A DNA stretch of 64,000 nt from Candidatus Ozemobacteraceae bacterium (lineage in GTDB: Bacteria; Muiribacteriota; Ozemobacteria; Ozemobacterales; Ozemobacteraceae), in assembly GCA_036567845.1 (NCBI GenBank), contig DATCTT010000187.1, forward strand, positions 385-64,384, read 5' to 3'. The translations under genes were made by a program, and so were the position numbers. This document shows positions 20,321 to 61,785 of this stretch, piece after piece (position 1 is the stretch's first letter; each line of letters begins with the position of its first letter). A model generated the notes under the pieces. The model was given only the letters and a program-made list of their open reading frames with translations, did no database searches and had not been told where the DNA came from.

Positions 20321-21181
20321 ATGGGCGCGGAAAACACGATGCAGATCACCGGGGCCGATTCCCTGATCGGAGAGGCCCTTGCGGCCGTCCGCGGGGAATT
20401 CCCGTTTGCAGGGTACATGGATGCGACGGGGGAGTCCGCAAGAAATATTGCGAAGATTATTCTTTCCTCGCTTCCCACCGGTTCCTCTGTTCTGGATTTC
20501 GGGTCAGGGCCCTGCGACAAGACGGCCGTTCTCCAGAAACTCGGATACAGATGCACGGCCATCGACGATCTCGGCGACGACTGGCATCGGCTGGACGATA
20601 ACAGGGCGCGGATTCTCGCGTTCATCCGGCACGCGGGGATCGTGTTCCACGAGGCCCCGACGGAGCAGCTCCGCGCGGCAGATGGCCGGCCATTCGACCT
20701 GCTGATGCTGAACGACGTGCTCGAACACCTGCATGACTCGCCGCGGGAGCTGATGAACTCGCTTGTCAGCCTGGTGCGTCCGGGGGGGCACGTTCTGATC
20801 ACCGTGCCGAATGCCGGCAACATCAGAAAACGACTGGCGTTGCTCCTCGGGAAGACCAATCTGCCCGCCTTCGAACTGTACTACTGGCAGGCCGGCCGGT
20901 GGCGCGGGCACGTCCGGGAGTATGTCCGATCCGATCTCCGGCTCCTGGCGGGGTATCTGGGTCTCACGGTTCTCGAGCTGCGCGGCTGTGACCACATGAC
21001 CGGCAAGGTGCCCGCTATTCTGAGGCCGCTATACCGGCTTGTCACAGGCGTATTCGACGGGTTCAAGGACACCTGGATGATGCTGTGCCGCAAGCCGGCG
21101 GACTGGAGTCCCCGATTGGAACTGCCACCCGAGGAATTCAGGAAGATGATGAACACCTATAATGCCTACTCTTTTTCCTGA
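20321..21181 (+). CDS. Class I SAM-dependent methyltransferase
   Basis: VLDFGSGPCD (motif I) and DLLMLNDVLEHL (motif II/post I). Confidence 0.7.
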   Translation: MGAENTMQITGADSLIGEALAAVRGEFPFAGYMDATGESARNIAKIILSSLPTGSSVLDFGSGPCDKTAVLQKLGYRCTAIDDLGDDWHRLDDNRARILAFIRHAGIVFHEAPTEQLRAADGRPFDLLMLNDVLEHLHDSPRELMNSLVSLVRPGGHVLITVPNAGNIRKRLALLLGKTNLPAFELYYWQAGRWRGHVREYVRSDLRLLAGYLGLTVLELRGCDHMTGKVPAILRPLYRLVTGVFDGFKDTWMMLCRKPADWSPRLELPPEEFRKMMNTYNAYSFS

Positions 21182-22355
21182 CCGCAGAATTCCGAATGGT
21201 CGAAAAATTCGGGTTGCCTGGCTGCTGACTCCCGTCACGTATGGCATGGGAGGCACATGGAAACATGTAAGCAACTGGGCCCGAGGTTTTGATCGGGAAC
21301 GATTTGAATGTTGCCTCTTCTTTTGCCCGACGGCTCCGGAAAAAGAACAAGCTATTATGGAACATTTTGCCGGATTCCCCGGCCTTGTCGTGATTCCTGT
21401 CCGTGGATTGTATCCCGTCTCTCGGTGGATCCAAGGGGGGCTGCTGGAGCTGTATGCAGCTCTGAAAAACTGGAAGCCGGATATCCTTCACTCGATTTTT
21501 TTGCAGAGCGATATTGCCGCCGCTCTTGTTGGTCGTCGAGCTGGGATTCAGGTCCATATCTCTTCGTGGGAAAGCGATCCGTGTTACTGGCTTTCGCCAG
21601 GATGGAAGTATCCCCTCAACAATCTGGGATTCAACTACAGCAAACGCCGGATAGATCGGGTTATTGTCATTACCTCGCATATGCGCCGACTGGGGATTGA
21701 CCGATTCCGAATCCCGGCTTCACGCATTTCTCAAGTCCCCGTTGGCTTGCCCCTGGAGGATTTTCCCCGGAGGAAGAACGTTGAGATTTGTGAACGTCCG
21801 TCGAGAAGCATTCGAATCGGGACGATTGCCCGACTGTCTCCGGAAAAACTCGTTGATACGATCATTCGGGCAATTCCCCTGGTGCTGAAAGTCTTTCCTG
21901 ATGCCCGCTTCATTATTGCCGGGGACGGTCCGGAAAAATCACGACTGGAACAGCTTGCCGCTGATCTTGGCGTGGGTTTGAGCACCGAGTTTATCGGGTG
22001 GCAGACGGATATCGGGTCTGTGCTGCAGAATTTGGATATCTTTCTCTTTACATCGAGGGCAGAGGGCTTGCCGCTGGCTGTTCTCGAAGCTCAGGCTGCG
22101 ATGGTTCCCACGATTGCTTCGAGTGTTGGGGGGGTGCCTGATATTATCCGGAATGGGGAAAACGGTCTATTGCTTTCGTCGGCCGCTCCGGAGGAACTTT
22201 CCACTCTTCTTCTGCGATTGATTGGGGACCGGCTTCTTGCGTCATCATTGGCGGAAAATGGCAGAAAGGTTTTCGAATCAAGGTTCTTGCTCGACATTGA
22301 AATGGCTCGTATTCAAGATATATATTTGGAACTTTGGGAACGGGCGTATTCATGA
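21162..22355 (+). CDS. Glycosyltransferase family 4 (GT-B, retaining)
   Basis: C-terminal EGLPLAVLEAQAAMVPTIASSVGGVPDII..GENGLL (EX7E region). Confidence 0.8.
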   Translation: MPTLFPDRRIPNGRKIRVAWLLTPVTYGMGGTWKHVSNWARGFDRERFECCLFFCPTAPEKEQAIMEHFAGFPGLVVIPVRGLYPVSRWIQGGLLELYAALKNWKPDILHSIFLQSDIAAALVGRRAGIQVHISSWESDPCYWLSPGWKYPLNNLGFNYSKRRIDRVIVITSHMRRLGIDRFRIPASRISQVPVGLPLEDFPRRKNVEICERPSRSIRIGTIARLSPEKLVDTIIRAIPLVLKVFPDARFIIAGDGPEKSRLEQLAADLGVGLSTEFIGWQTDIGSVLQNLDIFLFTSRAEGLPLAVLEAQAAMVPTIASSVGGVPDIIRNGENGLLLSSAAPEELSTLLLRLIGDRLLASSLAENGRKVFESRFLLDIEMARIQDIYLELWERAYS

Positions 22356-22382
22356 AAGAGAAATCGCGATGCATTTTATGAT

Positions 22383-23576
22383 GTGGCAGGGGATGTTGCC
22401 GGTGGCTGCGCAATGAACAGAACTGCTTTGAGCGAACGAGTCATTTTGTTTGGCCCGCTTCCGCCGCCCTTCAATGGCCATACTCTGGCTTTTCAGATGT
22501 GTGTCCGGGGATGCGAAGAGCGGGGGCTGCAGCCTCGCGTTATCGACTATAGCCCGAGATGGCCTTCCTTGCGGAGGATTCCTGGAAGCAGGGTGCTCGA
22601 GTATCTCTTCATCCTGCTGCGGTATGGCCGGGCTCTGGTTGGGCGACAGTGTGGGACGGTGTATATCACGCTGAATCAGGCAGTCGACGGCTTGTGCCGC
22701 GATCTGATGCTGATGACTGCCGCCCAGCTGCTTGGATATCGGGTTCTCGTTCATATTCATGGCGGTTGCTATGACGGCGTGCTTAAATCCGCCCCGCCAT
22801 TCGTACGCCACTTGGCTGTGAAAGCCCTCTCGGCCTGTGATGCTGTGATTCTGCTCAGTGACAGGCTCCGGTTCATGTTCGATGCATGGCCCGAGATCCA
22901 GCCGCGGCTCCGTGTCGTGCCCAACGGGCTGCCCTTCGAACCGACGGGCTGTCCGACGGCGCCGAAGGAGATTCGCCCGGGTGAGCCTGTGCGGCTTCTG
23001 TATCTTTCCAACATGATTGCCAGCAAGGGATGGCAGGTTGTCCTGGAATCGGTTGATCGTCTGGTTCGTCATCATGGAATCGATGTGAGGGCAAGATTCT
23101 GCGGAGGTTTCATGGCTTCACCGGAGGATCGGCAGTTTGCCTCTCCCGCCGCTGCCAATGCCTGGTTTGATGCATATATTGTCGATCATGGGCTGGAGGG
23201 CCATGTCCGATACGATTCACATGTGGGGGGGGAGGAAAAAATCCGGGCACTTCAGGAAGCGCATCTGCTTCTCCTGCCATCCTCCTATCCAAATGAAGGA
23301 CAACCACTCACCTTGATCGAGGGCCTGGCATACGGATGCGTGCTTGTGGGAACCCCCTATCGGGCGATCCCAGATATGGCTCGAGATGGGGAAACCGGTC
23401 TTCTTCTTCCGCCTGATGCAGCAATGATAGCTGATGGAATACAAAAGCTGGTGCGCGACCCCGAGCGATTCCGGAACATGAGCGCCTCATCGTTAGCCTT
23501 GTTCCGGAAGGAGTTCCGTTCGGAAATCCATGTTGCCAATATCCTCCGATTGTTGGAGCGTCCTGTCAAAAACTGA
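22383..23576 (+). CDS. Glycosyltransferase family 4
   Basis: EGQPLTLIEGLAYGCVLVGTPYRAIPDMARDGETGLLL. Confidence 0.8.
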   Translation: MAGDVAGGCAMNRTALSERVILFGPLPPPFNGHTLAFQMCVRGCEERGLQPRVIDYSPRWPSLRRIPGSRVLEYLFILLRYGRALVGRQCGTVYITLNQAVDGLCRDLMLMTAAQLLGYRVLVHIHGGCYDGVLKSAPPFVRHLAVKALSACDAVILLSDRLRFMFDAWPEIQPRLRVVPNGLPFEPTGCPTAPKEIRPGEPVRLLYLSNMIASKGWQVVLESVDRLVRHHGIDVRARFCGGFMASPEDRQFASPAAANAWFDAYIVDHGLEGHVRYDSHVGGEEKIRALQEAHLLLLPSSYPNEGQPLTLIEGLAYGCVLVGTPYRAIPDMARDGETGLLLPPDAAMIADGIQKLVRDPERFRNMSASSLALFRKEFRSEIHVANILRLLERPVKN

Positions 23577-23720
23577 ATATGGATTGCCTTGGGACCTGTC
23601 AGAATCGCGGGAACCCCGTTTGACAAAGGCTGGAACGAAGACGTATAGTTTGTGCTGCCCTGAAACGCTGGAATTACTGATGGGACGGAGGCGGTTTTGC
23701 CTCTTCCAGGAGAAGACCTG

Positions 23721-24800
23721 ATGAAAATATCGAAAAATGTCCTGCGTTATCTCTTTGGACGTGGGGCGTTCGGACAGCTGGGTGAGCTGCTGGCGCCTTT
23801 GCGGAGGTCCGCAGACAGCAGGGTTGTGTTCTGTATCGATCACTATTTTAAGAATCGTGGTCTCATCGGACAACTCCCCGCTTCAGACAGGGATGAAGTC
23901 CGGTTCATCGACACAACGCACGAACCTAAAACCACGGGGATCAACCAGCTGGCCGACGAGTTCCGCCGGTTTCCGGTGGGGGAGATCGTTGCCGTCGTAG
24001 GCATTGGCGGCGGGGCTACCATGGACACCGCAAAGGCCATATCCAACCTTCTGACGAATGACGGCCCTGCAGAGCAGTATCAGGGCTGGGACCTTGTCAG
24101 AAAACCGGGCGTTCACAAAATTGGCATTCCCACGATATCAGGCACGGGATCGGAGTCGAGCCGTACCTGTGTCATGACGAATCCGGTGAATGGACTCAAG
24201 CTTGGGATGAACAGCGACCATACGATCTTCGATCAGCTTGTCCTGGATCCCGATCTCTGCATGACGGTTCCGCGAAACCAGTATTTCTATACGGGGCTCG
24301 ATACCTATATCCACTGTATCGAATCGCTGAGTGGACGAAACCGGCACATGCTGGCGGACGCTTTTTCCCATGAGGCGCTGAGGCTCTCGAGGCAGGTGTT
24401 TCTCGAAAGTGACATGCAAGAGGACGCGAACAGAGAGGCTTTGATGACAGCCTCCTATCTCGGAGGATGTGCGATCGCCAACAGCTACGTCGGCCTCGTC
24501 CATCCTTTTTCGGCTGGTCTGAGCGTCGTTCTTGGCCTGCATCACGGGATCGGCAACTGTATCGCGATGCTCGGGATGGAGGAATTCTATCCCAAGGAAT
24601 ATAAAGAATTCATGGCCATGGTGGACCGCCAGCAGGTCGATATCCCCCGGGGTGTCTGCAAGGGCCTTTCTGACGATAAATTCGAGGCGCTGTATCAGTC
24701 GACGATCATCCATGAAAAGCCCTTGGCGAATGCGCTTGGAGATAGTTATCGCTCCATCCTCACCCCTGAAAAGGTAAAGCAGATCTTTCTCAAAATGTAA
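23721..24800 (+). CDS. Iron-containing alcohol dehydrogenase / glycerol-1-phosphate dehydrogenase-like (Fe-ADH superfamily)
   Basis: GIGGGATMDTAKAI (GGGSxxD motif), His-rich metal site (HPFSAGLSVVLGLHHG). Confidence 0.65.
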   Translation: MKISKNVLRYLFGRGAFGQLGELLAPLRRSADSRVVFCIDHYFKNRGLIGQLPASDRDEVRFIDTTHEPKTTGINQLADEFRRFPVGEIVAVVGIGGGATMDTAKAISNLLTNDGPAEQYQGWDLVRKPGVHKIGIPTISGTGSESSRTCVMTNPVNGLKLGMNSDHTIFDQLVLDPDLCMTVPRNQYFYTGLDTYIHCIESLSGRNRHMLADAFSHEALRLSRQVFLESDMQEDANREALMTASYLGGCAIANSYVGLVHPFSAGLSVVLGLHHGIGNCIAMLGMEEFYPKEYKEFMAMVDRQQVDIPRGVCKGLSDDKFEALYQSTIIHEKPLANALGDSYRSILTPEKVKQIFLKM

Positions 24801-24838: not shown

Positions 24839-25999
24839 ATGCCTGGATACGAACTGCTTGGGCAGGAAGAATTTCTCGAGATCAAGGAAATTTTCGACAA
24901 AAGCCGGATTCTTTTCCGACATAGTTTTGACCACCTCAGGAATGGCGTCTACAAAGTCAGGGATTTCGAGCAGGCTTTCGCAAAACGAATGAAGGTTTCC
25001 CATGCCCTTGCCGTATCATCAGGAACTGCGGCACTGCGTGTTGGCCTCGCGGCCATGGGGATCGGGAAGGGAGACGAAGTCATCACCCAGAGTTTCACGT
25101 TCGTCGCAACGGTGGAGGCGATCATCGAGGCGGGGGCAACGCCCATCATCGCTGAAATTGACGAAACGCTGAATATCGATCCGGAAGACCTCAAACGGAA
25201 GATCACCTCGCGCACGAAGGCGGTCATGCCGGTTCACATGCTCGGCACGCCTGCTCGCATGGAAAAGATCCTTGAGATAGCGCGTGCAAACAATCTCCGA
25301 GTGTTCGAAGATTCCGCCTGGGGATGCGGAGGCACTCTCAATGGCCAACCCCTTGGTACGATCGGCGACATGGGCGCCTATAGCTTCGATTTTGCGAAAA
25401 CGATGACCACAGGCGAAGGTGGCATGCTGGTCACGAACAATGCGGAATTCTACGCAAAGGCTGCGGCCTATCATGATCATGGCCATGAAAACAATCCGAA
25501 TTTCCCCCGCTGGGAGGATTCCAGAAGCGGTACGGGGTTCAATTACCGTGTTACCGAGCTGCAGGGTGCCGTCGGGCTGGCTCAATTGAAAAAGCTGGAT
25601 GAAGTTGTCCGAAGGCAGCGTGAAAATGCTGATACCATCTGGACCGCGATCCGGGGAATTCCCGGTATCCAACGCCGCGAACAGCCCTCAGGAAGCGCGG
25701 GAACAGCCGATGCCCTGGTGTTTTTCGTGAACAATGCTGAAACAGCAAAAGCCTGTCGAAAAGCGCTCCTCGAAGCGGGAGCCGGAACGAAGATCCTTCC
25801 CGAAGCCATCACGTGGCATTTTGCCGGAACATGGACTCATATGCCCGAGCTCGTAGCTGCCAACGGAAATGATCTTGCCACGGCGTTTCCAGCATCGCTG
25901 AAAATTCTCGAGCGAGCCGTTGCCCTCCCAATCGTTGTCATGATGAACCCTGAATACCCGCAAAAGGTGGCGACAGCTCTTCGCACAGTCTTGAAGTAA
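24839..25999 (+). CDS. DegT/DnrJ/EryC1/StrS-family PLP-dependent sugar aminotransferase (PseC/LegC-like)
   Basis: Fold-type I AAT layout. SFDFAKTMTTGEGGML (PLP-lysine region). Confidence 0.85.
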   Translation: MPGYELLGQEEFLEIKEIFDKSRILFRHSFDHLRNGVYKVRDFEQAFAKRMKVSHALAVSSGTAALRVGLAAMGIGKGDEVITQSFTFVATVEAIIEAGATPIIAEIDETLNIDPEDLKRKITSRTKAVMPVHMLGTPARMEKILEIARANNLRVFEDSAWGCGGTLNGQPLGTIGDMGAYSFDFAKTMTTGEGGMLVTNNAEFYAKAAAYHDHGHENNPNFPRWEDSRSGTGFNYRVTELQGAVGLAQLKKLDEVVRRQRENADTIWTAIRGIPGIQRREQPSGSAGTADALVFFVNNAETAKACRKALLEAGAGTKILPEAITWHFAGTWTHMPELVAANGNDLATAFPASLKILERAVALPIVVMMNPEYPQKVATALRTVLK

Positions 26000-26029: not shown

Positions 26030-27637
26030 ATGGAACCATTTGCCGTCGTCATCCCCGCTGTCAAGAAGAGCGTCGCCTTTGCGGACGATCTCATCAAAAA
26101 ACTTGATGGGATAACGCTCATTCAGCGCGCAATAGACAAGGCAAAGGCGATTGCTCCGGCGAATGCGATCCTTGTCGTTACCGATTCCCAGGAGATTTCC
26201 CTGATCTGTGAAAGGAATGCCGTGTCCTTCACGTATGACAGGGAAATGAGGCTTCAAAGTGAAGATTTGATCCAGGACCTGAAACCAGTCCTTCGCACAA
26301 TGGCCCGTAGGTTCCAGGATCTTATCGTCCTTTCCCCCTATACCCCGACGTTGCGGCCCGAAGTCATTCGTACCGGATACCGGCTGTTTCAGCAGATGGA
26401 GTATGACCTTCTGACAACCGTCAGAGAGGTTCATCACCGGTTGTATCTCGAGGGGAACAAACAGGCAGAGAGTTCCCAGGCGGTCCGAAACGATGGCAAG
26501 TATCTCGTGGAGGTGAACGGATTTCTCATCCTCCGCTCGAAAGTTGTTGGATCAATCCCCAGTCGGATCGGGACATACCCGGTCGATGACAGCATCGTCG
26601 AGATCCGGAATTATCAGGACTGGTGGGTATGTGAAAAACTCCTCCGCCGGAAGCGGATCGTGTTTCGTGTGATCGGGAACAACGACGTGGGAATGGGGCA
26701 CATTTTCCGCTCCCTGGCACTCGCACACGAAATTTCAAACCATGAGGTCATCTTCGTCTGCGATGAGGAGAGCCAGCTTGCGGTAAATGTCATCGCCGGT
26801 TCGGACTATCTGATCCTCACATTTTCCGGAAAAACGATCGAGCGCGACATCATTGCGTTGAGGCCGGAATTGGTGGTTAATGACATTCTGGATACCAATG
26901 CGGAGTATATCCGGGCGCTTCAGGCGAATGGAATCAAAGTGGTGAATTTCGAAGATCTTGGTACTGGGGCGGCCTGTGCGGACATTACCTTCAACGAATT
27001 ATACGACCGTCACCAAATTGCAGGAAGGAATATCCGGTGGGGACATCGGTATTATTTTTTGAGAGACGAATTTCTCGGTGCCCGGCCGATCGAATTCCGC
27101 GATCCTCCACAGAATGTCCTTATCACCTGTGGTGGAACCGATCCGAATGATCTGACGCGATTTGCCTTGGAGCAGGTGCTTCCCATATGCCGGGAGCATC
27201 ATTTGAAAATTTTTGTGGTGGTTGGCGAAGGGTATCGTCACAGAAAAGAATTGGAAAAACTGATTTTCTCGACGAAGCATGTCGAGATCGAATATTCGTA
27301 TGCCACGGGGGTCATGTCAAAATACATGGAGCGTGCTGATCTGGCGGTTTCCTCGAATGGCAGGACTGTATATGAGCTTGGTCATATGAACATTCCAGCT
27401 ATTGTCATTGCTCAAAATGACCGCGAAAAAACGCATGCATTTTCAACGTTGAAGAATGGGTTCGTCAATCTCGGCTTGTTCGATCCGGGGAAAACCGGCA
27501 AACAATTGAAAAATCATTTCCGCCGTCTCGTCAGCGATGCCGGATGGCGCAGGAAGTTGATGGAAAACGCGAAGAGATTTAATTTTCTCAAAAACAAGCG
27601 GAAGGTCGTTGCCTTGATCGAGGGACTTCTTGCATGA
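26030..27637 (+). CDS. Two-domain protein: degenerate cytidylyltransferase-like N-domain + PseG/SpsG-like UDP-sugar hydrolase (GT28-C-like) domain
   Basis: C-domain RVIGNNDVGMGHIFRSLALAHE parallels the PseG N-terminal G..G.GH..R motif. N-domain resembles CTP_transf_3 but lacks a clean GxSxR motif. Confidence 0.6.
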   Translation: MEPFAVVIPAVKKSVAFADDLIKKLDGITLIQRAIDKAKAIAPANAILVVTDSQEISLICERNAVSFTYDREMRLQSEDLIQDLKPVLRTMARRFQDLIVLSPYTPTLRPEVIRTGYRLFQQMEYDLLTTVREVHHRLYLEGNKQAESSQAVRNDGKYLVEVNGFLILRSKVVGSIPSRIGTYPVDDSIVEIRNYQDWWVCEKLLRRKRIVFRVIGNNDVGMGHIFRSLALAHEISNHEVIFVCDEESQLAVNVIAGSDYLILTFSGKTIERDIIALRPELVVNDILDTNAEYIRALQANGIKVVNFEDLGTGAACADITFNELYDRHQIAGRNIRWGHRYYFLRDEFLGARPIEFRDPPQNVLITCGGTDPNDLTRFALEQVLPICREHHLKIFVVVGEGYRHRKELEKLIFSTKHVEIEYSYATGVMSKYMERADLAVSSNGRTVYELGHMNIPAIVIAQNDREKTHAFSTLKNGFVNLGLFDPGKTGKQLKNHFRRLVSDAGWRRKLMENAKRFNFLKNKRKVVALIEGLLA

Positions 27638-29384: not shown

Positions 29385-29395
29385 GAGCCCCGGCA

Positions 29396-47766: not shown

Positions 47767-47767
47767 T

Positions 47768-51364: not shown

Positions 51365-51398
51365 GGGAACTCTCCTCTCGTCTCTGATATCCAAAGGG

Positions 51399-53590: not shown

Positions 53591-53844
53591 GGTGAGTCGC
53601 TCCTTGCGGGATCATCCTAGCCCGTTCCCCGTCAGGCTGCAAGGCCGGATGGAGGATAATCCGCCCTGCTTCCCTGCGAGCGGTCTGGCATACAGGAACT
53701 GCGGACGAATCCCTGCGCTCTCGATACCGGAACCGGGTTTCAATTGTGCGCCTTCTTGTTCGATGGATCCTGCCCCTGTATTTGCGCGGGGGCGGGGGTT
53801 GAAGTATGGTGGGAAAGTATCGTTCGAAGGGGAAGGGAGAGGGC

Positions 53845-54813
53845 ATGAAACGGTTCGCTCTTGCTGCATGGATGAGTCTGTTCCTGGCCGGTGCCGCCTT
53901 GGCAGGGCCGAATGTCGTGTTCACCGGGGAGATTTCCGCAAATCCCGATCTGTACAGCCTCGATCTGGCAACGGACCGGGTCGTCAGGCTGACAACCGCT
54001 TCCACGGCCGAAATGCAACCATCCGTGGCGGCCGACGGCAGGACGGTCGCGTTCATTTCTGACGCCGATGGCGCCCCATCGCTATATCTGATGGATGCTG
54101 CCGCTTCAGAGACGGCCTGGCAGCGGGTGAGCCCCGGAATAGGGGCGTATGCCCACCCGGCATTCTCGCCGAACGGGGCGCAGATCGCCGTCAGCTATGC
54201 GCCGGATCCCGAAGCCCCGTTAACCGACACCTGCATCGTCCTCGTCGATCCAAAGGCGAAAAGCCAGACCCTTCTGGTTCGGGGCTCCGATGTGCATCCC
54301 GGCTATGAGGCTGCCGGTGGCCCGATTCTGGTTCTGGATCGGCCGCACTGGATCGATGCGGGGAACCTCCTGTTCGTTGCCCTTGAATATGCCGATGCCG
54401 AGAGTGGCCGTCTGCTCAGCGCGACAGTGTACCGTTTCGACATTGCCGGCAAAACCGTGACTCGCCTCGCCGGCGGGGAGGCATACTTCGATGAGCAGGG
54501 GGCGCCGCGCGGTTTCAAAGCTTCCATGCCCTGGTGCCGGCCTGACGGGAGTCTCGTGACATTCACGGCGATCCAGGGTCATTTCGATCGGACGGCCATG
54601 GCCATGAAGCCGGACGCAAAGGAAAAGCGGGTGCTCCCCATCCGGGATCCCGAGTTCTGGGGACCGGCGATTTCCGTCGGGGGCGAGTTCCTGTATGGAT
54701 TTCGCGGCGATGACGGCCGCCTGGGACTTGCTCTGACCACCAGGGCTGGGAAAGGGCCGCGGCGTGTGATCGGCTTCGGCGGCGCCGCTCTCGATCCGGT
54801 CGTGATTCCCTGA
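53845..54813 (+). CDS. Periplasmic TolB-like beta-propeller (PD40/WD40-like repeats) protein
   Basis: Signal peptide MKRFALAAWMSLFLAGAALAG. Repeated ...SP(D/N)G..IAF.. blades. Confidence 0.55.
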   Translation: MKRFALAAWMSLFLAGAALAGPNVVFTGEISANPDLYSLDLATDRVVRLTTASTAEMQPSVAADGRTVAFISDADGAPSLYLMDAAASETAWQRVSPGIGAYAHPAFSPNGAQIAVSYAPDPEAPLTDTCIVLVDPKAKSQTLLVRGSDVHPGYEAAGGPILVLDRPHWIDAGNLLFVALEYADAESGRLLSATVYRFDIAGKTVTRLAGGEAYFDEQGAPRGFKASMPWCRPDGSLVTFTAIQGHFDRTAMAMKPDAKEKRVLPIRDPEFWGPAISVGGEFLYGFRGDDGRLGLALTTRAGKGPRRVIGFGGAALDPVVIP

Positions 54814-54979
54814 CGGAAAGCGGGTGTACCTGCGGTTTCGAGAAGACGGTCCGTGGATGGGGCCGCCTGGACTGTGCCCGGATGGCCCGAAGATAAATAT
54901 GTAATGATTTAATTTATACCGGTTTCGATACAACCGCTCATGCCCGTCGGGTATGTATCGTCGGGACAGGGATGAAACC

Positions 54980-56710
54980 ATGGATTTTGCGACGCTGAGG
55001 CGGCACGTGGCCGAAACGGCGGCGACCTGGAAGGATCGGCCGCCGATCGTGGCGCGCGCCGTCGATCTGGCCCCATCGGGATTCGGCCTGGTGCTGAAGG
55101 CTACGGCGGGGTGGGAGTGCCTGCAGATTCATCTCAACCCTGAGCAACAGGGGTTCAGGGTCTCGGCGGCCTGGGACGAGGCGCCGGGCGAATCGGCCCT
55201 CACCCGTGCGTTGGCCCGGTATCTGAAGGATGCGCGGATCGAGCGGATCGAGTTGTTCGAAACCTTGCCCGAAAGCGCCAACGACCGCATCGTTCGCTGG
55301 CGGTTTCTGGTGCGGGACCCGTTTTTCGGGACGGTGAACCGGTTTTCCCTGATCGGGGAGTTCACCGGAAGGGTTGCGAATCTGCTGCTGTGCGATGCTG
55401 ACGGGATCGTCATCGAGCAGGCCCGGGCGACCGGGAACAACCGGCCGCGCGAGGAATACCGCCCCCCCGTGACCTCGCCATCGGACCAGGTGAATCCGTC
55501 CGCCGCGTCGAATGAAATCCTTGGAGAAATCCTGGCGGCGCCTCAGCAGACGTGGCCCGACCGCCTCCGCTGTTTTTCGCCGCTCGCCGCAAAGGAGCTG
55601 GCGTTCCGGCGGAATGCCGCACCGGAAAGCGATCCCGTGAGCCTTCTCCTCGATCTGGCCGTCGAGGCTTCGGCGATGGACGGACCGGTGAGGGTGTATC
55701 TGCCTCTCCGCCGGACCCCGATCGTCAGCGCGTTCAATGCTCGGCACCTCGAGGCGCTCGGGGCGGAGGTGCGCGAAACCGCGACGGTGAACCAGGCTCT
55801 GGAGCTGGTCGAGCGGGAACTCCTCCGGCCCAGACGCCTTGAAACCCTTCGCGAACAGGCGATTGCCGGGTTTGAACGTGACCTGCGGACGAAAGAACGG
55901 CTGCTCGAGTCGCAGAGAGCCCTTCAGGCGGAGTATGCCGATGCCGAATGTTGGCGCCGATCTGGCGATCTGCTGCTGACCTACGGGGGCGATATTCCCC
56001 CGCGGGCTTCAGAAGCTCATCTGACGGATTGGGAGACGGGGCGGGAGATGACGATCCCGCTCGATCCGTCCCGGACTCCGGCGCAGAACGCCCAGAAATG
56101 TTTCCATCGCTATAAAAAAGCATTGCGTGGCCGCGAGGAAACCGCCCGACGCGTCGTGGAACTTGAAGCCGAGATCGCCTGGATCCGCGAGCAGATCTGG
56201 CTGTGCGGCCAGGCCGAGACGGCTGCCGACCTCGTCGCCCTGCCTTCAGCCCGACCCCGGAAGAGCCGGCATGCACGCGCAGGCGGCCGTGGTGAGTCTG
56301 ATCGGGCACGGGCGGCTGCGAAGCTGATACGTCCCCTGGTCGAGATCGACGGGTGCCGCTTCTACGTCGGCCGGAACGGGCGTCAGAACGATCTGATCAC
56401 CTTCCAGATCGGTCGTCGCGGCGACATCTGGTTCCACGCGAACGATGTTCCGGGAAGCCATGTCGTTGCCCGTCGGCCCGGAGGAACACCCGGTCCCGAG
56501 GATCTGGTGCGGGGAGCGGCGCTTGCGGCCTGGTTCAGCTTTGCTCGTGACAGTTCAAAAGTTCCGGTCGATTACACCGACATCGCATTCGTGAAGCGCA
56601 TTCCCGGGGGCGGTGCGGGCCGTGTGAACTACACGAACCAGAAAACCCTGTATGTCGATCCCGCAAGTGGAGCGGCCCTGTTGAATGCTTCTGATGATCT
56701 GAAGCATTAG
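54980..56710 (+). CDS. rqcH: RqcH / FbpA-family (NFACT-N ... NFACT-R/DUF814) ribosome quality-control protein
   Basis: C-terminal FYVGRNGRQNDLITFQ...DIWFHANDVPGSHVV is the DUF814 core. Long coiled-coil middle section. Confidence 0.8.
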   Translation: MDFATLRRHVAETAATWKDRPPIVARAVDLAPSGFGLVLKATAGWECLQIHLNPEQQGFRVSAAWDEAPGESALTRALARYLKDARIERIELFETLPESANDRIVRWRFLVRDPFFGTVNRFSLIGEFTGRVANLLLCDADGIVIEQARATGNNRPREEYRPPVTSPSDQVNPSAASNEILGEILAAPQQTWPDRLRCFSPLAAKELAFRRNAAPESDPVSLLLDLAVEASAMDGPVRVYLPLRRTPIVSAFNARHLEALGAEVRETATVNQALELVERELLRPRRLETLREQAIAGFERDLRTKERLLESQRALQAEYADAECWRRSGDLLLTYGGDIPPRASEAHLTDWETGREMTIPLDPSRTPAQNAQKCFHRYKKALRGREETARRVVELEAEIAWIREQIWLCGQAETAADLVALPSARPRKSRHARAGGRGESDRARAAAKLIRPLVEIDGCRFYVGRNGRQNDLITFQIGRRGDIWFHANDVPGSHVVARRPGGTPGPEDLVRGAALAAWFSFARDSSKVPVDYTDIAFVKRIPGGGAGRVNYTNQKTLYVDPASGAALLNASDDLKH

Positions 56711-57396
56711 GAAAGTGAAACTTGTTCAGACAGTGCTAACTTCCAGAAGCGATGGAGCTGGGCCAAGTCGCTTACTTTGAAGCAAGGAATCTTTTCGAAA
56801 TAGGTGTTGTCCGGATGGAGGCGGGCTGTAAAAGGAATTCCCGCCGCTTGAGCTGCTTCGTAATCACTCAAGGCATCACCAACGAAGAGGGCATTGGTTT
56901 GCGCGATGTGTCCCTGAGTGAGTATCGCTTTGATTGCATCCAATTTTGATGTGGGTGCTCCAAAGACACCAGTGAAGTAGCCTCTGAGCGAACGGCGGGA
57001 TAAAATCTGGTCCAGCTCGTCTTGGGGTGTTCCTGAAACGATGTAAAGAGCGGCAGAAGCATGTGCTTCCTCGAGAAATTCCATCGTTCCGGGCACAAGC
57101 GGAGCTTCGAGGACTTTCGCAAAAACAATTTCCTGAAAACGCTTTCCAAGAAGCTGAAAATCTGCTTCTGAAAGTGACCTTTGAAGAATTTCAGAGTAGA
57201 TGTATCGGAACTTCACCCACCGCGAAAGGCCGCCTTGCTCGAGGTGATAGGCCATGATGCGCTGGCGACACTCTTCGCTCTCGCCGGCAAAAATTTCGGA
57301 GAAGGCATCTGTTTTGATTCTGCTCGATTCAAGAATCACGCCGTCGAAGTCGAACAGAAAAGCCCGGATCATCGTTTTGGGAAATGAAGATTCCAT
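56707..57396 (-). CDS. HAD-superfamily hydrolase (phosphatase)
   Basis: FLFDFDGVI (DxDG motif I) and VGDALSDYEAA (motif IV). Confidence 0.7.
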   Translation of the reverse strand: MESSFPKTMIRAFLFDFDGVILESSRIKTDAFSEIFAGESEECRQRIMAYHLEQGGLSRWVKFRYIYSEILQRSLSEADFQLLGKRFQEIVFAKVLEAPLVPGTMEFLEEAHASAALYIVSGTPQDELDQILSRRSLRGYFTGVFGAPTSKLDAIKAILTQGHIAQTNALFVGDALSDYEAAQAAGIPFTARLHPDNTYFEKIPCFKVSDLAQLHRFWKLALSEQVSLS

Positions 57397-57410
57397 CGAA
57401 TTGAAATAAT

Positions 57411-58328
57411 TTATTCTTCCCGCAATTCATCGCAGGAACTTGCAGGATCCAGCCCAAGGTCTGCTGCAATGACCTTTAAACACTCTACCAGTCCCTGCCC
57501 CATATCGATAAATGGATTGGCAACAAGTTTTTTTGCGCAGGAAGGGTGGAATGAATAAGGTGTGACTCCGTAATGGCCGATTTGCGCTTCCTGGATGGTT
57601 TCAAAATGGACCTGATCCCCGAGAATTTCGCGAATCATCCGGAACAGCTCGATTCTCTTCAGTTTTTCGAAACCCGTCAGAATAATGTGCTGATTGGCAA
57701 AGGAGGCATCTTCGATGATGTCCACGGATAGTTTGGCTGCGTCCTGAGCATGGATGTATTCTCGAACATCTTCCGGGTCACCAGCCATGACAAGCTTTTT
57801 TTCTTTTATGGCACGCTGAAGAATACTGTAGATGAAATTGTGCGAATCAGCTCTTTCTCCATAAAGGGAGCCATATCTGACGATCGAGAACTGTGTTCCA
57901 TAGCGAATAAAATATTCTTCGATCAGCTTTTCCGAGGTGTATTTGCTTATGCCGTAAAAAGACCCTTTGCGACTGAAGGCATAAGTGCTGCTGGCATAAA
58001 TAAACCTCTTGACAGATCGACCCCGACATGCCTCAAGGAGGTTCAGATTCCCCACAACATTGTGCTGGATCGTTGGGAGAGGTTTGTGTATTGCTTCGTT
58101 TAGATCTGCGATTCCGGCAAAGTTATAGACGAATGTCTCTTCAGTGCCGATCACTTCACAAACCTTGGGAAGATCGAGAATGTCGCAGTGTCTGAACTCT
58201 TGATTCGGCTTGAGATACTTGGATGGCCGAATATCGGCAACAACGACCTTGTAGCCGCGCTGTGACAGCTCATCGGCCACATAGCTGCCGATGAAACCAC
58301 TTCCTCCGAAGACAACTGCTTTTTTCAT
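57411..58328 (-). CDS. NAD-dependent epimerase/dehydratase (extended SDR)
   Basis: AVVFGGSGFIGSYV, YxxxK. Confidence 0.8.
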   Translation of the reverse strand: MKKAVVFGGSGFIGSYVADELSQRGYKVVVADIRPSKYLKPNQEFRHCDILDLPKVCEVIGTEETFVYNFAGIADLNEAIHKPLPTIQHNVVGNLNLLEACRGRSVKRFIYASSTYAFSRKGSFYGISKYTSEKLIEEYFIRYGTQFSIVRYGSLYGERADSHNFIYSILQRAIKEKKLVMAGDPEDVREYIHAQDAAKLSVDIIEDASFANQHIILTGFEKLKRIELFRMIREILGDQVHFETIQEAQIGHYGVTPYSFHPSCAKKLVANPFIDMGQGLVECLKVIAADLGLDPASSCDELREE

Positions 58329-59245
58329 GACTGTGAGAGCTCCCGAAGCCGTTCAATGGCACATCGTCCCATTGCAATGACAGCGTTTTTGGAATTTCCC
58401 CCGATATGGGGGGTGCAAATGATGTTGGGCAACTCTATCAACTCACGATCCGTCACGGGTTCGTCTTCGTAGACGTCGATTGCTGCACCAGCGATAATTC
58501 CCTTTTTGAGGGCTTCTCTGAGATCCCTCTGGTGAATGATACGCCCTCTTGCAGTGTTGATGAGAAAAGCCGTTGGTTTCATGAGCTTTAACGTGGATTC
58601 CTGGATGAGCCCTTCTGTTTCTGGAGTGAGAGGGGTGTGAATGGAAATGACATCCGCTGTTCGGAACAGCTCCTCTTTTGTTGTTTCGAACAGGCCATTT
58701 TTTTTATAGTAGTCTCTTTGGTCGATAATGTCATTCACCAGAATCCGACAATGAAATGGCTCAAGCATCCGAATAACTTCTTTTCCGATGTGTCCAACTC
58801 CGACGATGCCGACACACAACTGGGAAAGCTCTTGTCCACCGGCTTTTTTCCAATGACCTCGCCGAAGTTCGTAGGAAGAAAAAAAGAGATTTCTGCAGAG
58901 CCCGATCATGAACCCAATCGTCATTTCGGCGACAGAGATGCGATTGACACCGCACCTGCTGCCGATCTGGACATGATGCCGCTGGCAGGCTTCCAGATCG
59001 ATGTTGTCGAGCCCCACCCCATATTTTGCCACAAAGCGTAATGAAGGGAGTTGGCTCAGAAGGGACTCGTCGATCTGCTCCAGACCGATAATTGCACCTT
59101 CCACGCCCTGTAAAAAATCGACGAGGCGGGCTCCCATCAGTTTTTCGCCGGAATCATTGAAAATACTGTCCGGAAAAATTGCCAGAAGTTCGCGACGCAG
59201 AAGCTGGTTATTCGAAAAAGATGGAGAGGTGACAGCGATCTTCAT
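58325..59245 (-). CDS. D-isomer-specific 2-hydroxyacid dehydrogenase (PGDH/GyaR-like)
   Basis: VGIVGVGHIGKEV (NAD fold), catalytic R/E/H triad context (...TARG...H). Confidence 0.8.
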   Translation of the reverse strand: MKIAVTSPSFSNNQLLRRELLAIFPDSIFNDSGEKLMGARLVDFLQGVEGAIIGLEQIDESLLSQLPSLRFVAKYGVGLDNIDLEACQRHHVQIGSRCGVNRISVAEMTIGFMIGLCRNLFFSSYELRRGHWKKAGGQELSQLCVGIVGVGHIGKEVIRMLEPFHCRILVNDIIDQRDYYKKNGLFETTKEELFRTADVISIHTPLTPETEGLIQESTLKLMKPTAFLINTARGRIIHQRDLREALKKGIIAGAAIDVYEDEPVTDRELIELPNIICTPHIGGNSKNAVIAMGRCAIERLRELSQS

Positions 59246-59296
59246 GAGTGTTCCATTCCTGATCTAATTTAGCCAAGTCGCGTTCGCTCGTGGGCT

Positions 59297-60043
59297 CTAT
59301 TCCCCACCGGCTATCGTTATCGTATCATTGGTGATGAAGGTATTATTTTCTGAACCGAGGTAGAAGACTAAATCGGCAACCTCTTCCGGCCGGCCGAGGC
59401 GTTGCATGGGGATCATTGCGGTTCGCCGGGACATATCCTTGGGGAATTTCCGATGAAAATCCGTGTCGATAACCCCAGGGCGAACGGTATTGACAAGAAC
59501 ATTTTTTGAGGCCCCCTCCCGGCCCAGCGTGTGCGTGACTCCCTCAAGAGCCATCTTGGCACAACCATAATGGAGGGAAACTGCGGAACCGCCGTATTTT
59601 GCTGCAATGGAGCTGATATTGACGATACGCCCGAATCCGCGAGCTATCATACAGGGAAAGATACGGCCGGCCAGAATCGTTGGAGCAAAAACATTTACTG
59701 CGAATGTCTTGTGAAGGTCACTCATGCTCAATTCGGCAAAAGGCCTACTGGCGATGTATGTGCCTGCGTTGTTGACAAGCGCGTCAACCGAGAGTTCTCT
59801 GAGATGTGAGGCTATTGATTCAATGCCGTCTTCCGTTGTGAAGTCTGCCTGGTAAAATACGGGAGATTTCCCCTGGCTCTCCAATTCCAGGGACAAGGCT
59901 CGAGCTTTTTCCTCGGAACGGTGGTACTGGCCTGAAACGTCCCAGCCGCCGCGAGAAAATCGCCTGGCAATCGCTTGGCCAATGTCGCTTGTCACTCCCG
60001 TGATGAATACACGGCGTGCTGCTTGTTTCTCTCCCGTGGTCAT
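59297..60043 (-). CDS. SDR-family oxidoreductase
   Basis: VFITGVTSDIGQAI, YGCAKMA (YxxxK). Confidence 0.8.
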   Translation of the reverse strand: MTTGEKQAARRVFITGVTSDIGQAIARRFSRGGWDVSGQYHRSEEKARALSLELESQGKSPVFYQADFTTEDGIESIASHLRELSVDALVNNAGTYIASRPFAELSMSDLHKTFAVNVFAPTILAGRIFPCMIARGFGRIVNISSIAAKYGGSAVSLHYGCAKMALEGVTHTLGREGASKNVLVNTVRPGVIDTDFHRKFPKDMSRRTAMIPMQRLGRPEEVADLVFYLGSENNTFITNDTITIAGGE

Positions 60044-60049
60044 GGGTGA

Positions 60050-60781
60050 TCAGGCAGCAGTGAAACCATGCTTTTTCAACCACCACTCGACGACGGGAAT
60101 TTGCCATTCATAATCGACATCGCAACCAGCCTCCTGCTTGAGCGGGTAGATCTTCTGGCCCATCCATTTCTGCGGGAGGAGCCCCTGCTCAAGATGTTCG
60201 AGATTGTCTGGGCGAACGACGCTGACGGCGACATCGGCAAACCAGGAATCACCTTGACTGTCCCGGTCGCAGTTGAGCGTTTTCGATTCGAAAACATCAT
60301 GGGGAATGAAGGGGTGGAGCAACCCATCGGGGCCGATTTTGCGGGCCCGAAGGGGACTCCACATATTGTATCTGGAAACAGTGACTGCCGAGTCATACGA
60401 TGCATTATTCCGGAGAATCGTAATTCCCTCGTCGATTGTTTCGGGAAGCAGCGTCGCTGCATTGCAGAAAAGAAGAACCATCAGCTCTGGCCGTTGACCA
60501 AGCCGCCGGCAAATCTCTTCATATCCGTGTTTGTAAGCATCTTCGCCCAGCGCTTCCTTCGTGCAAAGGTAGGCCGGCCGTTCGATGACTTCGACTCCTG
60601 TTTGCCGTGCCAATTCCATAAGCCGTTCGTCATCGGTGGAAAGATACACACGATCCACGAGCTTTGCATTTTTCGCGGCATTCATTGGATACCAGGAAAG
60701 CGGTCGTCCCAATACCGGAAACAGATTCTTGCCGGGAAACCCCACACTGCCTTTGCGACCTAGGATTAGTGCTGCGATCAT
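60050..60781 (-). CDS. neuA: N-acylneuraminate (nonulosonate) cytidylyltransferase, CMP-sugar synthetase family
   Basis: MIAALILGRKGSVGFPGKNL matches IIPARGGSKGIPRKN. Confidence 0.8.
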   Translation of the reverse strand: MIAALILGRKGSVGFPGKNLFPVLGRPLSWYPMNAAKNAKLVDRVYLSTDDERLMELARQTGVEVIERPAYLCTKEALGEDAYKHGYEEICRRLGQRPELMVLLFCNAATLLPETIDEGITILRNNASYDSAVTVSRYNMWSPLRARKIGPDGLLHPFIPHDVFESKTLNCDRDSQGDSWFADVAVSVVRPDNLEHLEQGLLPQKWMGQKIYPLKQEAGCDVDYEWQIPVVEWWLKKHGFTAA

Positions 60782-61785
60782 CTGGCCCTTCCTTCCTTGC
60801 TCATTTCCAATGCTCGATATGAACAGCAGTCACAACCTGCATTTTGGTGTGACTCACCCGAAATATGAAGTTTGCGGAGGTGTTTTTCCGCCTCGGAATG
60901 CCAGAGGCTTTTCAAAGAATCAGTGGCGGCGTTTCCCAGCGTCAGGGGCTTCAGGTCCTCAACGCCATGTGCCAGACACGAGAGCACTGTGCCGTCCCAT
61001 AGCACAGTAAGGCGTTGCCAGAGGAAGGGGCATTTGAACTTGCCCGTTTTTCCACGGTGATTGACCCCTGGCCCTTCGTCTCTTGCATCAAGATACCCCA
61101 CTTCGTCAGCGAACTTTCTCCAGTATTCTTTGTACGACTCCCAATGGAGGTTCATTTCGGGAAGCATTACCGTCTGGATGCGAATCTTTGGCGTGGTGCT
61201 TTTCAACCGGGTGCGTATCCGAAGAAGCGTCTCGATGTTTTTGCAGACGAGTGAATAATCTGCGCCCGGCCGATATTGACTGTAACTCTTCGCATCCCAT
61301 CCATCAATGGATATCGAAATGCGTGGCAGACCAGCCTCGATGAGGGCTGTGCTTATTTCCTCGGTTAAAAGCATGGCGTTGGTGTTGAAGTAGCAATCGA
61401 GAATGCCTGCCTTCCGAACCATGCGCACCATATCGACGAGGTGTGGATGGATAAGAGGTTCCCCGCGCAGGCTGAATTTAATGCAGTAAACCCCTTCCCG
61501 CGCTGCTTCGTCGATGAGCTTGCGGAAAAGCTCCATGCTTATGAAACCTCGAGCATGTGGTCCCCATCCCTCATGGGTGGCGGCGCAGTGGGGACAGCGA
61601 AGGTTGCAGGCGCTCGTGGACTCGATGTCAAGATGAAGGGGAAACGGGGCAACGACAGCGTTGATGGGATTGTCTCTCCACTGTCTGCGATATTCCGCAA
61701 ACGCAGCATCCTGAAGGCTGGCATCGAAAACCGAATGCCCGGAACTGTGGAAATTGAGATTTCCCTGTTCTGAATTGCTTGTCAT
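60778..61785 (-). CDS. Radical SAM protein with SPASM-like C-terminal Cys cluster
   Basis: CNLRCPHC (Cx3Cx2C) and C-terminal CDCCSY. Confidence 0.75.
   Translation of the reverse strand: MTSNSEQGNLNFHSSGHSVFDASLQDAAFAEYRRQWRDNPINAVVAPFPLHLDIESTSACNLRCPHCAATHEGWGPHARGFISMELFRKLIDEAAREGVYCIKFSLRGEPLIHPHLVDMVRMVRKAGILDCYFNTNAMLLTEEISTALIEAGLPRISISIDGWDAKSYSQYRPGADYSLVCKNIETLLRIRTRLKSTTPKIRIQTVMLPEMNLHWESYKEYWRKFADEVGYLDARDEGPGVNHRGKTGKFKCPFLWQRLTVLWDGTVLSCLAHGVEDLKPLTLGNAATDSLKSLWHSEAEKHLRKLHISGESHQNAGCDCCSYRALEMSKEGRAR

Follow-up and report, generated by a model that had tools for sequence, protein, structure and literature searches.

Composition and boundaries of the surface-glycan region

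A computational analysis has been carried out on a 64,000-nucleotide stretch of DNA from a Candidatus Ozemobacteraceae bacterium (assembly GCA_036567845.1, contig DATCTT010000187.1, positions 385 to 64,384 of the forward strand), hereafter the window. It concerned the interval from 20321 to 61785, which includes two genes of the NeuB family among other surface-glycan genes. All substantial open reading frames (ORFs) between 14.8 and 63.9 kb of the window were scanned with Pfam and NCBIfam models, and gene boundaries were cross-checked against the gene calls on public contigs with the same sequence. The initial annotation had described a lower-GC island of about 40 kb, and the analysis has revealed that the interval is a mosaic surface-glycan region and not one 40-kb island.

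The GC content at third codon positions (GC3) of each gene was bimodal across the interval, with a clean separation of native and foreign-looking sets. The native genes (among them the first methyltransferase gene, the genes from RfbF to the GT2 glycosyltransferase, NeuB copy 2/NeuC/LegB, PD40 and NFACT) showed GC3 values of 0.71-0.85. The foreign-looking genes were found in block A (21162-46919, 25.8 kb), with GC 0.53 and GC3 0.59 (0.52-0.66 per gene), and in block D (about 56690-61925, genes at 56707-61785, 5.2 kb), with GC3 0.54 (0.50-0.58 per gene). The segment between them (block B, 46993-56710) was native in composition, with GC3 of 0.71-0.85; from 47 to 56.5 kb the GC content was 62-66%, codon usage was native, and the housekeeping genes PD40 and NFACT are located inside. 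The methyltransferase gene that opens the interval (GC3 0.77) was native too, and the low-GC parts measured 46-57% in 1-kb windows instead of the 42-50% previously given. The low GC is broken up along the interval, with no continuous island.

Relative synonymous codon usage followed the same division, with correlation coefficients of 0.95 for block B against the flanking native genes, 0.73 for block A against native genes, 0.57 for block D against native genes, 0.74 between blocks A and D, and 0.92 between the two halves of block A. The composition junctions were reproduced at 95-100% identity by independent assemblies from three samples (SRR2059973, SRR6476075 and JGI 3300022663), and an assembly chimera was rejected because contigs of the three samples span these junctions. 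A search for mobility signatures revealed neither tRNA genes nor flanking direct repeats, and no integrase or transposase was present among the scanned ORFs of the interval.

A fixed slot and an inherited NeuB operon

The region is a fixed slot with variable content, delimited by the SLH/WecG-TagA genes on the left and by the NFACT/response regulator-SpoIIE genes on the right. Homologues of NFACT with 90%, 73% and 69% identity were found in Candidatus Ozemobacteraceae and related metagenome-assembled genomes (MAGs), and others with about 36% identity in Riflebacteria; the NeuB copy 1 protein and the NeuA-like cytidylyltransferase of block D (CT3) are both recorded from an Ozemobacteraceae MAG. 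The SLH protein and the WecG/TagA-like gene, already noticed in the initial annotation, are on the left flank. In a relative (L075) whose WecG is 62% identical, the order SLH-hypothetical protein-WecG and the upstream housekeeping genes were kept (HD, LplA, MBL-cNMP, ADP-ribosylglycohydrolase, SLH and WecG being syntenic), and the glycan gene set adjoining WecG differs from that of the window. In a distant riflebacterium (L009), SLH, WecG and NFACT are all within 10 kb.

On the right side, legB, neuC, neuB copy 2, PD40, NFACT, response regulator-SpoIIE and HDOD genes were collinear in two relatives (L008 and L010). A third one (L014) was collinear from neuC on; its contig ends inside neuC, and NeuB copy 2 was thus seen only in L008 and L010. 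The LegB, NeuC and NeuB copy 2 proteins of these relatives were, respectively, 79-95%, 67-91% and 83-92% identical to those of the window, and the three genes show GC3 values of 0.78-0.82. As this trio is syntenic in relatives and has native composition, NeuB copy 2 belongs to the inherited core, and the trio is an inherited component within Ozemobacteraceae. In L008, L010 and L014, NFACT is directly followed by response regulator-SpoIIE with no block D between them, so block D is an insertion.

Block D therefore combines atypical composition with absence from the same site in relatives, as a horizontally acquired island does, and block A largely does so too (GC3 0.59, and different content in L075). 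Block B shows native composition, with the trio and the housekeeping genes syntenic in relatives. Horizontal exchange, initially proposed for the whole interval, finds support in the case of blocks A and D, from GC3 and codon usage, from the absence of block D in three relatives and from the content next to WecG in L075; it does not hold for the trio. Synteny in relatives together with native composition, which had been set as evidence against an exchanged island, was indeed found for NeuB copy 2, NeuC and LegB, with block D absent there.

The 4 kb beyond neuB copy 2 contained only distant homologues of window genes, namely GT2, GT4 and a B12 radical SAM gene in L008 and GT4s and a methyltransferase in L010; RfbF, RfbG, RmlC-like and DegT3 were absent from these 4 kb in both relatives. 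In L010, where NFACT is 73% identical, an IS4-family transposase gene (5092-6261, minus strand) lies between neuC and neuB copy 2. This gap had been considered as a place for legC, a candidate that was rejected on finding the transposase.

As initially proposed, NeuC and a 4,6-dehydratase accompany copy 2, and the three products scored above the curated NCBIfam cut-offs (Table 1), which fits a predicted Leg-type sugar; the Leg/Neu-type route suggested for copy 2 thus agrees with the presence of NeuC and a LegB-type dehydratase. Copy 2 scored 264 against the PseI model TIGR03586 (cut-off 340), and NeuB_NnaB was higher. The LegC model TIGR04181 gave 212, 173 and 111 for the DegT proteins, below its cut-off of 420. 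No hexapeptide acetyltransferase was found in the interval, and the sole LegF candidates in the window were sub-threshold CTP_transf_3 proteins. We infer that the aminotransferase, N-acetyltransferase and CMP-transferase of a Leg route lie elsewhere or come from the accessory blocks.

Table 1. Genes of the mosaic region and its anchors in the window, with the matches on which each assignment is based.
Gene product	Position	Strand	Evidence and remarks
WecG/TagA-type glycosyltransferase, left anchor	18137-19930	-	Glyco_tran_WecG 208 bits; NCBIfam TIGR00696; native composition
SAM methyltransferase, first gene of the plus-strand operon	20321-21181	+	Methyltransf_23; native, GC3 0.77
GT4 glycosyltransferase	21162-22355	+	Glycos_transf_1 / Glyco_transf_4
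GT4 glycosyltransferase	22413-23576	+	Glycos_transf_1 / Glyco_transf_4
KdnB-like iron-containing alcohol dehydrogenase (Fe-ADH), predicted ulosonic-acid terminal-carbinol oxidase	23721-24800	+	
KdnA-like DegT aminotransferase	24839-25999	+	Best match 5K8B
CT-PseG fusion, 535 aa	26030-27637	+	Weak N-terminal cytidylyltransferase and PseG-like hydrolase domain
CT2, SpsF/KdsB-like cytidylyltransferase	27634-28329	+	CTP_transf_3 84 bits
NeuB copy 1 (NeuB1)	28326-29384	+	Pfam NeuB and SAF
DUF4910/DUF2172 metallopeptidase-like protein, C-terminal winged helix-turn-helix (wHTH)	29366-30690	+	Pfam; gene call
MaoC dehydratase	30758-31303	+	Pfam
AAC(3)-like N-acyltransferase	31300-32115	+	Pfam
FkbH-domain loader	32118-33941	+	TIGR01686 290 bits, cut-off 147
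Acyl carrier protein (ACP)	33949-34191	+	Pfam
Short-chain dehydrogenase/reductase (SDR)	34225-34986	+	Pfam
Radical SAM/SPASM enzyme	35144-36367	+	Pfam; NCBIfam all below cut-off
B12-binding radical SAM enzyme	36417-37910	+	Pfam; NCBIfam all below cut-off
Wzx-type flippase	37930-39438	+	Polysacc_synt; about 10 membrane segments
LIC12162-family transferase	39541-41382	+	TIGR04331 319.9 bits, cut-off 225
Divergent DegT-like protein	41412-42728	-	Pfam DegT, residues 47-221 only; PDB about 100 bits
587-aa protein, weak LIC13510-family match	42725-44488	-	TIGR04326 50 bits, cut-off 250
Methyltransferase	44890-45735	+	Pfam
DegT3, generic sugar 4-aminotransferase-like	45795-46919	+	PDB best about 200 bits, perosamine synthase/ArnB types; NCBIfam below cut-offs
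RfbF, glucose-1-phosphate cytidylyltransferase	46993-47766	+	TIGR02623 374.5 bits, cut-off 300
RfbG, CDP-glucose 4,6-dehydratase	47768-48862	+	TIGR02622 472 bits, cut-off 278
RmlC-like epimerase	48850-49332	+	Weak: 24.4, cut-off 27
GT2 glycosyltransferase	49320-50279	+	Pfam
NeuB copy 2 (NeuB2)	50276-51364	-	Pfam NeuB and SAF; TIGR03569 497 bits, cut-off 400
NeuC/LegG-type hydrolysing 2-epimerase	51399-52580	-	TIGR03568 423 bits, cut-off 236
LegB-type NAD-dependent 4,6-dehydratase	52580-53590	-	TIGR04180 517.9 bits, cut-off 475
PD40/Tricorn_N protein, housekeeping	53845-54813	+	Pfam; syntenic in relatives
NFACT/RqcH-like protein, housekeeping	54980-56710	+	Pfam; syntenic in relatives
HAD protein	56707-57372	-	Pfam/NCBIfam
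SDR epimerase	57411-58328	-	Pfam/NCBIfam
2-hydroxyacid dehydrogenase	58325-59245	-	Pfam/NCBIfam
FabG-like SDR	59297-60043	-	Pfam/NCBIfam
CT3, CTP_transf_3 cytidylyltransferase (NeuA-like)	60050-60781	-	Pfam/NCBIfam
Radical SAM/SPASM protein	60778-61785	-	Pfam/NCBIfam
Response regulator-SpoIIE phosphatase, right anchor	61925-63334	-	Pfam; native, syntenic

NeuB copy 1 and its travelling cassette

Both genes initially assigned to the NeuB family carry the Pfam NeuB and SAF domains, and the two proteins are only 37% identical, which excludes the recent duplication that had been set as a refuting condition. With this identity and their separate contexts, the proposal of two distinct NeuBs and two plausible ulosonic-acid routes was upheld. 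NeuB1 scored 307.8 with NeuB_NnaB (cut-off 399.7) and 220 with the PseI model TIGR03586 (cut-off 340), below both cut-offs and higher with the former. Homologues with 63-72% identity were found in Campylobacterota, Pseudomonas, Bacteroidota, Fibrobacteria, Omnitrophica, Gallionella and gut and marine metagenomes, and the only name given to them by NCBI is 'N-acetylneuraminate synthase family protein'. NeuB1 is accordingly assigned, from these identities, to an unnamed NeuB clade found across many phyla.

A cassette consisting of Fe-ADH, DegT, CT-PseG, CT2, NeuB and DUF4910 genes was found again in Aliarcobacter butzleri and on a contig from a metagenome (L074), the proteins of this contig being 55-86% identical, and Pseudomonas borbori has a minimal pair with the CT-PseG fusion and NeuB only. 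Among the NeuB1-clade loci with enough upstream flank, 13 of 41 carry the cassette Fe-ADH (homologues 53-60% identical), which is accompanied by CT2 at 12 of these 13 loci and by the same type of fusion at 11. DUF4910 was present at 16 of the 66 loci with enough downstream sequence.

A search against solved structures placed KdnB, the 8-oxidase for 3-deoxy-D-manno-octulosonate (Kdo) of Shewanella (5K8C), at the top for the Fe-ADH with 318 bits, followed closely by an uncharacterised Fe-ADH (3RF7, 312 bits), the first entry annotated otherwise reaching 106. For the adjacent DegT protein the top match was KdnA (5K8B), the transaminase that forms 8-amino-Kdo (Kdo8N), with 299 bits, the next one having 183. 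This protein remained below the cut-offs of PseC (220, cut-off 423) and LegC (212, cut-off 420). A KdnB-subfamily Fe-ADH gene and a KdnA-type aminotransferase gene thus adjoin on the same strand, which suggests that the product is an ulosonic acid aminated at its terminus and not pseudaminic acid. KdnB and KdnA turn Kdo directly into Kdo8N, which has been reported only from Shewanella (PMC4402001, PMC5125639), and their chemistry requires a terminal CH2OH group (PMC4402001). This requirement fits block A, which has no 4,6-dehydratase of its own according to the Pfam scans, and speaks against pseudaminic acid and other 9-deoxy sugars. A KdnA pairing as a general property was rejected, because in the commoner form of the cassette, that of A. 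butzleri, the DegT next to the KdnB-like gene resembles generic sugar aminotransferases and not KdnA.

The Pse-type label initially given to copy 1 was not sustained, since no model for PseB, PseC, PseG, PseI or PseF reached its cut-off and the neighbouring DegT is KdnA-like. For PseB, the best score in the window was 67 (cut-off 408), which corresponds to the LegB gene, and no PseB was found in block A. PseC gave 220, 258 and 118 for the DegT proteins (cut-off 423), and PseF 66.7 (CT3) and 23.7 (cut-off 205.7). No GNAT/PseH-like acetyltransferase appeared in the Pfam scans of the interval ORFs. The PseG-like gene could be retained in part: the domain is present, although only as the C-terminal half of the 535-aa fusion, where TIGR03590 scored 129.8 at residues 209-464, below the cut-off of 153.6. 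Residues 4-135 of the fusion have KdsB/PseF-type matches, and its homologues carry Pfam CTP_transf_3. In addition, Bacillus subtilis uses a PseG-like enzyme to make legionaminic acid, so pseudaminic acid cannot be deduced from the presence of a PseG-like gene (PMC7439481). The predicted product of block A is, on this basis, not pseudaminic acid.

Other genes of block A and the CDP-6-deoxyhexose operon

Four cytidylyltransferase-type domains were counted, as before: the weak N-terminal domain of the fusion, CT2, CT3 and RfbF. Only three DegT aminotransferases were found instead of four, and tblastn searches with each of them against the whole window revealed no fourth one. The GT2/GT4 transferases and Wzx were recovered (two GT4, one GT2 and one Wzx). 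Several genes are additional to those initially listed: the KdnB-like Fe-ADH, DUF4910, MaoC, AAC(3)-like, FkbH, ACP, SDR, two radical SAM and LIC12162 genes, together with the HAD, epimerase, 2-hydroxyacid dehydrogenase, SDR and radical SAM genes of block D.

An independent assembly of sample SRR2059973 (L001, about 12875-12884) has a tract of ten G residues in the DUF4910 gene and encodes an intact 441-aa DUF4910 protein that includes the wHTH. The corresponding tract of the window has nine, and this is the sole difference between the window and L001 over 20,696 aligned bases; it reflects either slipped-strand phase variation or an error in the assembly. In block A, 9 G/C homopolymers were observed versus 5.0 expected under a first-order Markov model (p about 0.07), a suggestive but not significant excess. 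The cassette of A. butzleri (L072) includes G10 and G9 tracts, located in a methyltransferase region that is fragmented.

For the proposed rfbF/rfbG/epimerase set, RfbF and RfbG were above their cut-offs and the epimerase was only a weak RmlC-like match. The start codon of the operon running from RfbF to GT2 was read directly from the sequence, and its composition is native (GC3 0.74-0.85). On three human-gut contigs (L078, L080 and L082, about 2500-13500), a NeuB1-clade gene (69% identical) and a LIC12162-like gene lie less than 3 kb from an RfbF-RfbG-RmlC-like-DegT3-GT2 set; the latter is 50-62% identical to that of the window and is partly also near a NeuB1-type gene in L121. The same pairing of modules thus exists in gut bacteria.

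On the left flank, the WecG/TagA protein is extended at its N-terminus by some 320 residues, which contain about 10 predicted membrane segments and match no Pfam family, and homologues of similar length were found across Riflebacteria. Directly upstream of the SLH gene, the GC content falls to 48% in one kilobase (14001-15000), where a 293-aa ORF without Pfam match is located (14164-15045, minus strand). The matching site in L075 holds other small genes, PDDEXK_3 and a 156-aa ORF.

Block D

The junction sequences place block D at about 56,690-61,925, in place of the last 14 or so codons of NFACT. These codons (window 56650-56710) are wholly unlike those of the 90%-identical relative, and the insertion appears to have replaced the 3' end of NFACT. 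The CT3 family shows 70-85% identity in many bacteria, with about 70% for the archaeon Methanoregula. In L157 and in Methanoregula (L158), the CT3 homologues lie in modules that resemble block D but lack NeuB. The one in L158 (10001-10732) belongs to a 2-hydroxyacid dehydrogenase/epimerase/methyltransferase/HAD module lacking NeuB; L157 has a second CTP_transf_3 domain, apart from the CT3 homologue, that is fused to a 2-hydroxyacid dehydrogenase. The pairing of this NeuA-like gene with copy 2, initially suggested, was not supported, given its location in an insertion absent from the relatives that keep the trio and the occurrence of its family in NeuB-less modules.

Block D was also compared with the ElaABC cassette for C8 epimerisation of CMP-Leg in Acinetobacter baumannii KL49 (PMC13656337), which is likewise a mobile add-on with a CTP-transferase and NAD(P)-dependent oxidoreductases. 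Three block D proteins searched against solved structures gave only weak NeuA matches (53 bits) and generic SDR/GalE matches, and ElaA, ElaB and ElaC were not named among the matches listed for these three proteins (E <= 1e-30 in the case of the second SDR). An ElaABC-type cassette was thus rejected; unlike it, block D-type modules occur without NeuB, and ElaABC stays as an analogy only.

Discussion

The interval is probably best explained as a mosaic of three layers, with an inherited Leg-type core, an acquired block A with a second ulosonic-acid cassette of unrelated evolutionary origin, and a separate block D. Several observations weigh against this explanation. The operon from RfbF to GT2 is native in composition, yet no counterpart was seen at this position in L008 or L010, so native composition is not equivalent to core. 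Leg and Neu5Ac routes are not told apart by the NeuC and NeuB models, and the predicted choice of Leg for copy 2 depends on the adjoining LegB-family gene; LegC, LegH and LegF were not recognisable in the window nor within 10 kb of the trio in relatives, so that the product of the trio is a putative one. The KdnB-like and KdnA-like genes are together only in the window and L074, and possibly in a few other loci. The DUF4910 gene of the window is frameshifted at a G9 tract (30508-30516), with the ORF ending at 30556. Finally, homologues of block D genes (2-hydroxyacid dehydrogenase, epimerase and HAD, as well as radical SAM) adjoin NeuB1-type cassettes in L114, L124 and L074, and blocks A and D may cooperate rather than act independently.

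Starting from the gene identities, composition, synteny and cassette distribution observed directly, the inferred substrates, order of steps and final sugars would be as follows. A nonulosonic acid of the Leg type would obtain its backbone from the inherited trio and the remaining steps from elsewhere, and the RfbF/RfbG operon would supply a companion CDP-6-deoxyhexose. In block A, the PseG-like domain would hydrolyse a nucleotide sugar, and NeuB1 would condense the freed sugar with phosphoenolpyruvate. The KdnB/KdnA-like pair would then oxidise and transaminate the terminal CH2OH, as for Kdo8N, and the AAC(3)-like enzyme would N-acylate the product with an ACP-borne group, which FkbH would load and the MaoC, SDR, radical SAM and methyltransferase enzymes would tailor. 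After activation to a CMP-sugar by a cytidylyltransferase, the LIC12162-family transferase and the GT4 enzymes would build the repeat, and Wzx would export the lipid-linked unit. Block D encodes a cytidylyltransferase/dehydrogenase/HAD/radical SAM module of a kind that is found elsewhere as a unit on its own.

A more specific proposal, to be taken as a tentative possibility, is that block A makes an undescribed class of ulosonic acid, that is, a NeuB1-derived nine-carbon 3-deoxy sugar acid oxidised and transaminated at the hydroxymethyl group of C9 by the KdnB/KdnA homologues, a reaction documented to date only for Shewanella Kdo8N, and N-acylated at the resulting amine with an ACP-borne, FkbH-loaded and radical SAM-tailored group. 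Its cassette, which has versions in many bacterial phyla, would possibly be phase-variable in expression through the poly-G tract of DUF4910. Almost nothing was found, in the literature searched, on FkbH with nonulosonic acids or on KdnA/KdnB outside Shewanella.

The steps missing from the trio could be taken to indicate one integrated Leg-type pathway, in which the trio would be completed by an accessory aminotransferase, N-acyltransferase, CMP-transferase and tailoring enzymes, NeuB1 being redundant or an alternative synthase for differently N-acylated intermediates. This scheme would account for a trio without LegC, LegH and LegF and for a block A that lacks its own 4,6-dehydratase and has three DegTs, an N-acyltransferase and cytidylyltransferases, and in B. 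subtilis legionaminic acid is the product of a set with PseG-like, SpsE and SpsF enzymes (PMC7439481). However, the NeuB1 cassette is present in many genomes with no LegB/NeuC/NeuB2 trio nearby, the trio is kept in relatives without blocks A or D, and the KdnB/KdnA-type pair requires the terminal CH2OH that 9-deoxy Leg-type sugars do not have (PMC4402001); the integrated pathway is for these reasons unlikely. The matches to the Kdo 8-oxidase and to the Kdo8N transaminase are strong and specific, and would also be compatible with a KdnB/KdnA-like pair that, with CT2, draws on the ordinary Kdo pool to make true Kdo8N or a different amino-ulosonic acid of eight carbons, NeuB1 and CT-PseG making a separate nonulosonic acid. 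Block A would in that case encode two activated acidic sugars. The best NCBIfam matches of CT2 are KdsB subfamilies, Fe-ADH occurs with CT2 at 12 of 13 loci, and NeuB1 and CT-PseG form the minimal pair of P. borbori, all in line with such a division. CT2 is nevertheless far below the cut-off (57 versus 255 bits) and the Fe-ADH is always within the NeuB1 cassette at the loci examined, so that a Kdo8N product is considered very unlikely.

A single acquired island of about 40 kb, with a pseudaminic route for copy 1 and a Leg/Neu route for copy 2 together with the NeuA-like gene at 60050, is the least probable of the explanations considered and is largely refuted. It would agree with the two distinct NeuBs and their separate neighbours, with the PseG-like domain and cytidylyltransferases adjoining copy 1 and with the lower GC over much of the interval. 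It is opposed by the sub-threshold scores of every Pse model, with no PseB in block A and no PseH-like protein in the Pfam scans, by the KdnA-like DegT next to copy 1, by the native and syntenic NeuB2 trio, by the interruption of the interval by housekeeping genes and by the position of the NeuA-like gene in an insertion without counterpart in relatives.

Compared with characterized systems, the three-layer mosaic has both shared and distinctive traits. In the CMP-legionaminic acid route of Campylobacter jejuni (LegB, LegC, LegH, LegG, LegI and LegF; Schoenhofen et al. 2009, as cited in PMC7439481), three of the families correspond to the trio, whose LegB, NeuC/LegG and NeuB/LegI members are above cut-offs. 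Unlike that route, the window has no recognisable LegC, LegH, LegF or GlcNAc-1-P guanylyltransferase, and the trio is a stand-alone three-gene operon here and in L008, split by IS4 in L010, with legB and part of neuC on the L014 contig. The B. subtilis sps route (SpsM, SpsC, SpsD, SpsG, SpsE, SpsF; PMC7439481) has in common with block A a PseG-like enzyme together with a synthase of the NeuB family and a cytidylyltransferase of the CTP_transf_3 type. It differs in that NeuB1 scores 144 bits against SpsE (173 against NeuB of Neisseria meningitidis) and in that block A lacks an SpsM-type dehydratase and an SpsD-type acetyltransferase.

Synthesis of Kdo8N in Shewanella oneidensis depends on the KdnB oxidase and the KdnA transaminase (PDB 5K8C and 5K8B; Gattis et al. 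2013, as described in PMC4402001 and PMC5125639), the closest solved-structure matches of the adjoining Fe-ADH and DegT; the pair of the window is placed inside a NeuB cassette of a riflebacterial surface-polysaccharide locus, and not in a lipid A-core context. The neighbourhood of CA_C2195 in Clostridium acetobutylicum and about 229 further genomes (PMC4000134) likewise has DUF4910/wHTH by spsE (NeuB) and spsF, with an N-acyltransferase, ACP, an FkbH-like protein, methyltransferases and glycosyltransferases. In contrast to it, the window has a Wzx/LIC12162 set and not a Maf-type flagellin glycosyltransferase, and adds the KdnB/KdnA-like pair and two radical SAM enzymes. The flagellar glycosylation locus of C. 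jejuni, with the fkbH-domain gene cj1302, ACP genes and poly-G phase-variable genes (PMC7099621), resembles the window in having an FkbH-domain gene in a nonulosonic-acid locus and G homopolymers in glycan genes; it belongs to another phylum, and phase variation in the window is suggested by a single G9/G10 difference.

These results offer a first look at the surface-glycan genetics of Riflebacteria, an uncultured phylum, and the pattern is a familiar one, an inherited sugar-acid core with swappable accessory modules in a fixed slot. The general lead is a NeuB clade, 63-72% identical in distant phyla, that travels with a KdnB-like oxidase, two cytidylyltransferases and DUF4910. The unexpected element is a KdnB/KdnA-type pair in an unnamed NeuB cassette, which possibly leads to a new amino-ulosonic acid. 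In the literature, Kdo8N is described as confined to Shewanella (PMC4402001), and the DUF4910 neighbourhood (spsE, spsF, amino-sugar acyltransferase, ACP and HAD-acyltransferase) was presented in 2014 as a conserved, unsolved 'modified polysaccharide' neighbourhood in ten bacterial clades (PMC4000134). If the cassette introduces an amine at the terminal carbon of a sugar resembling sialic acid, Kdo8N-type chemistry would extend beyond Shewanella, and a product would be named for a gene neighbourhood flagged as unsolved since then.

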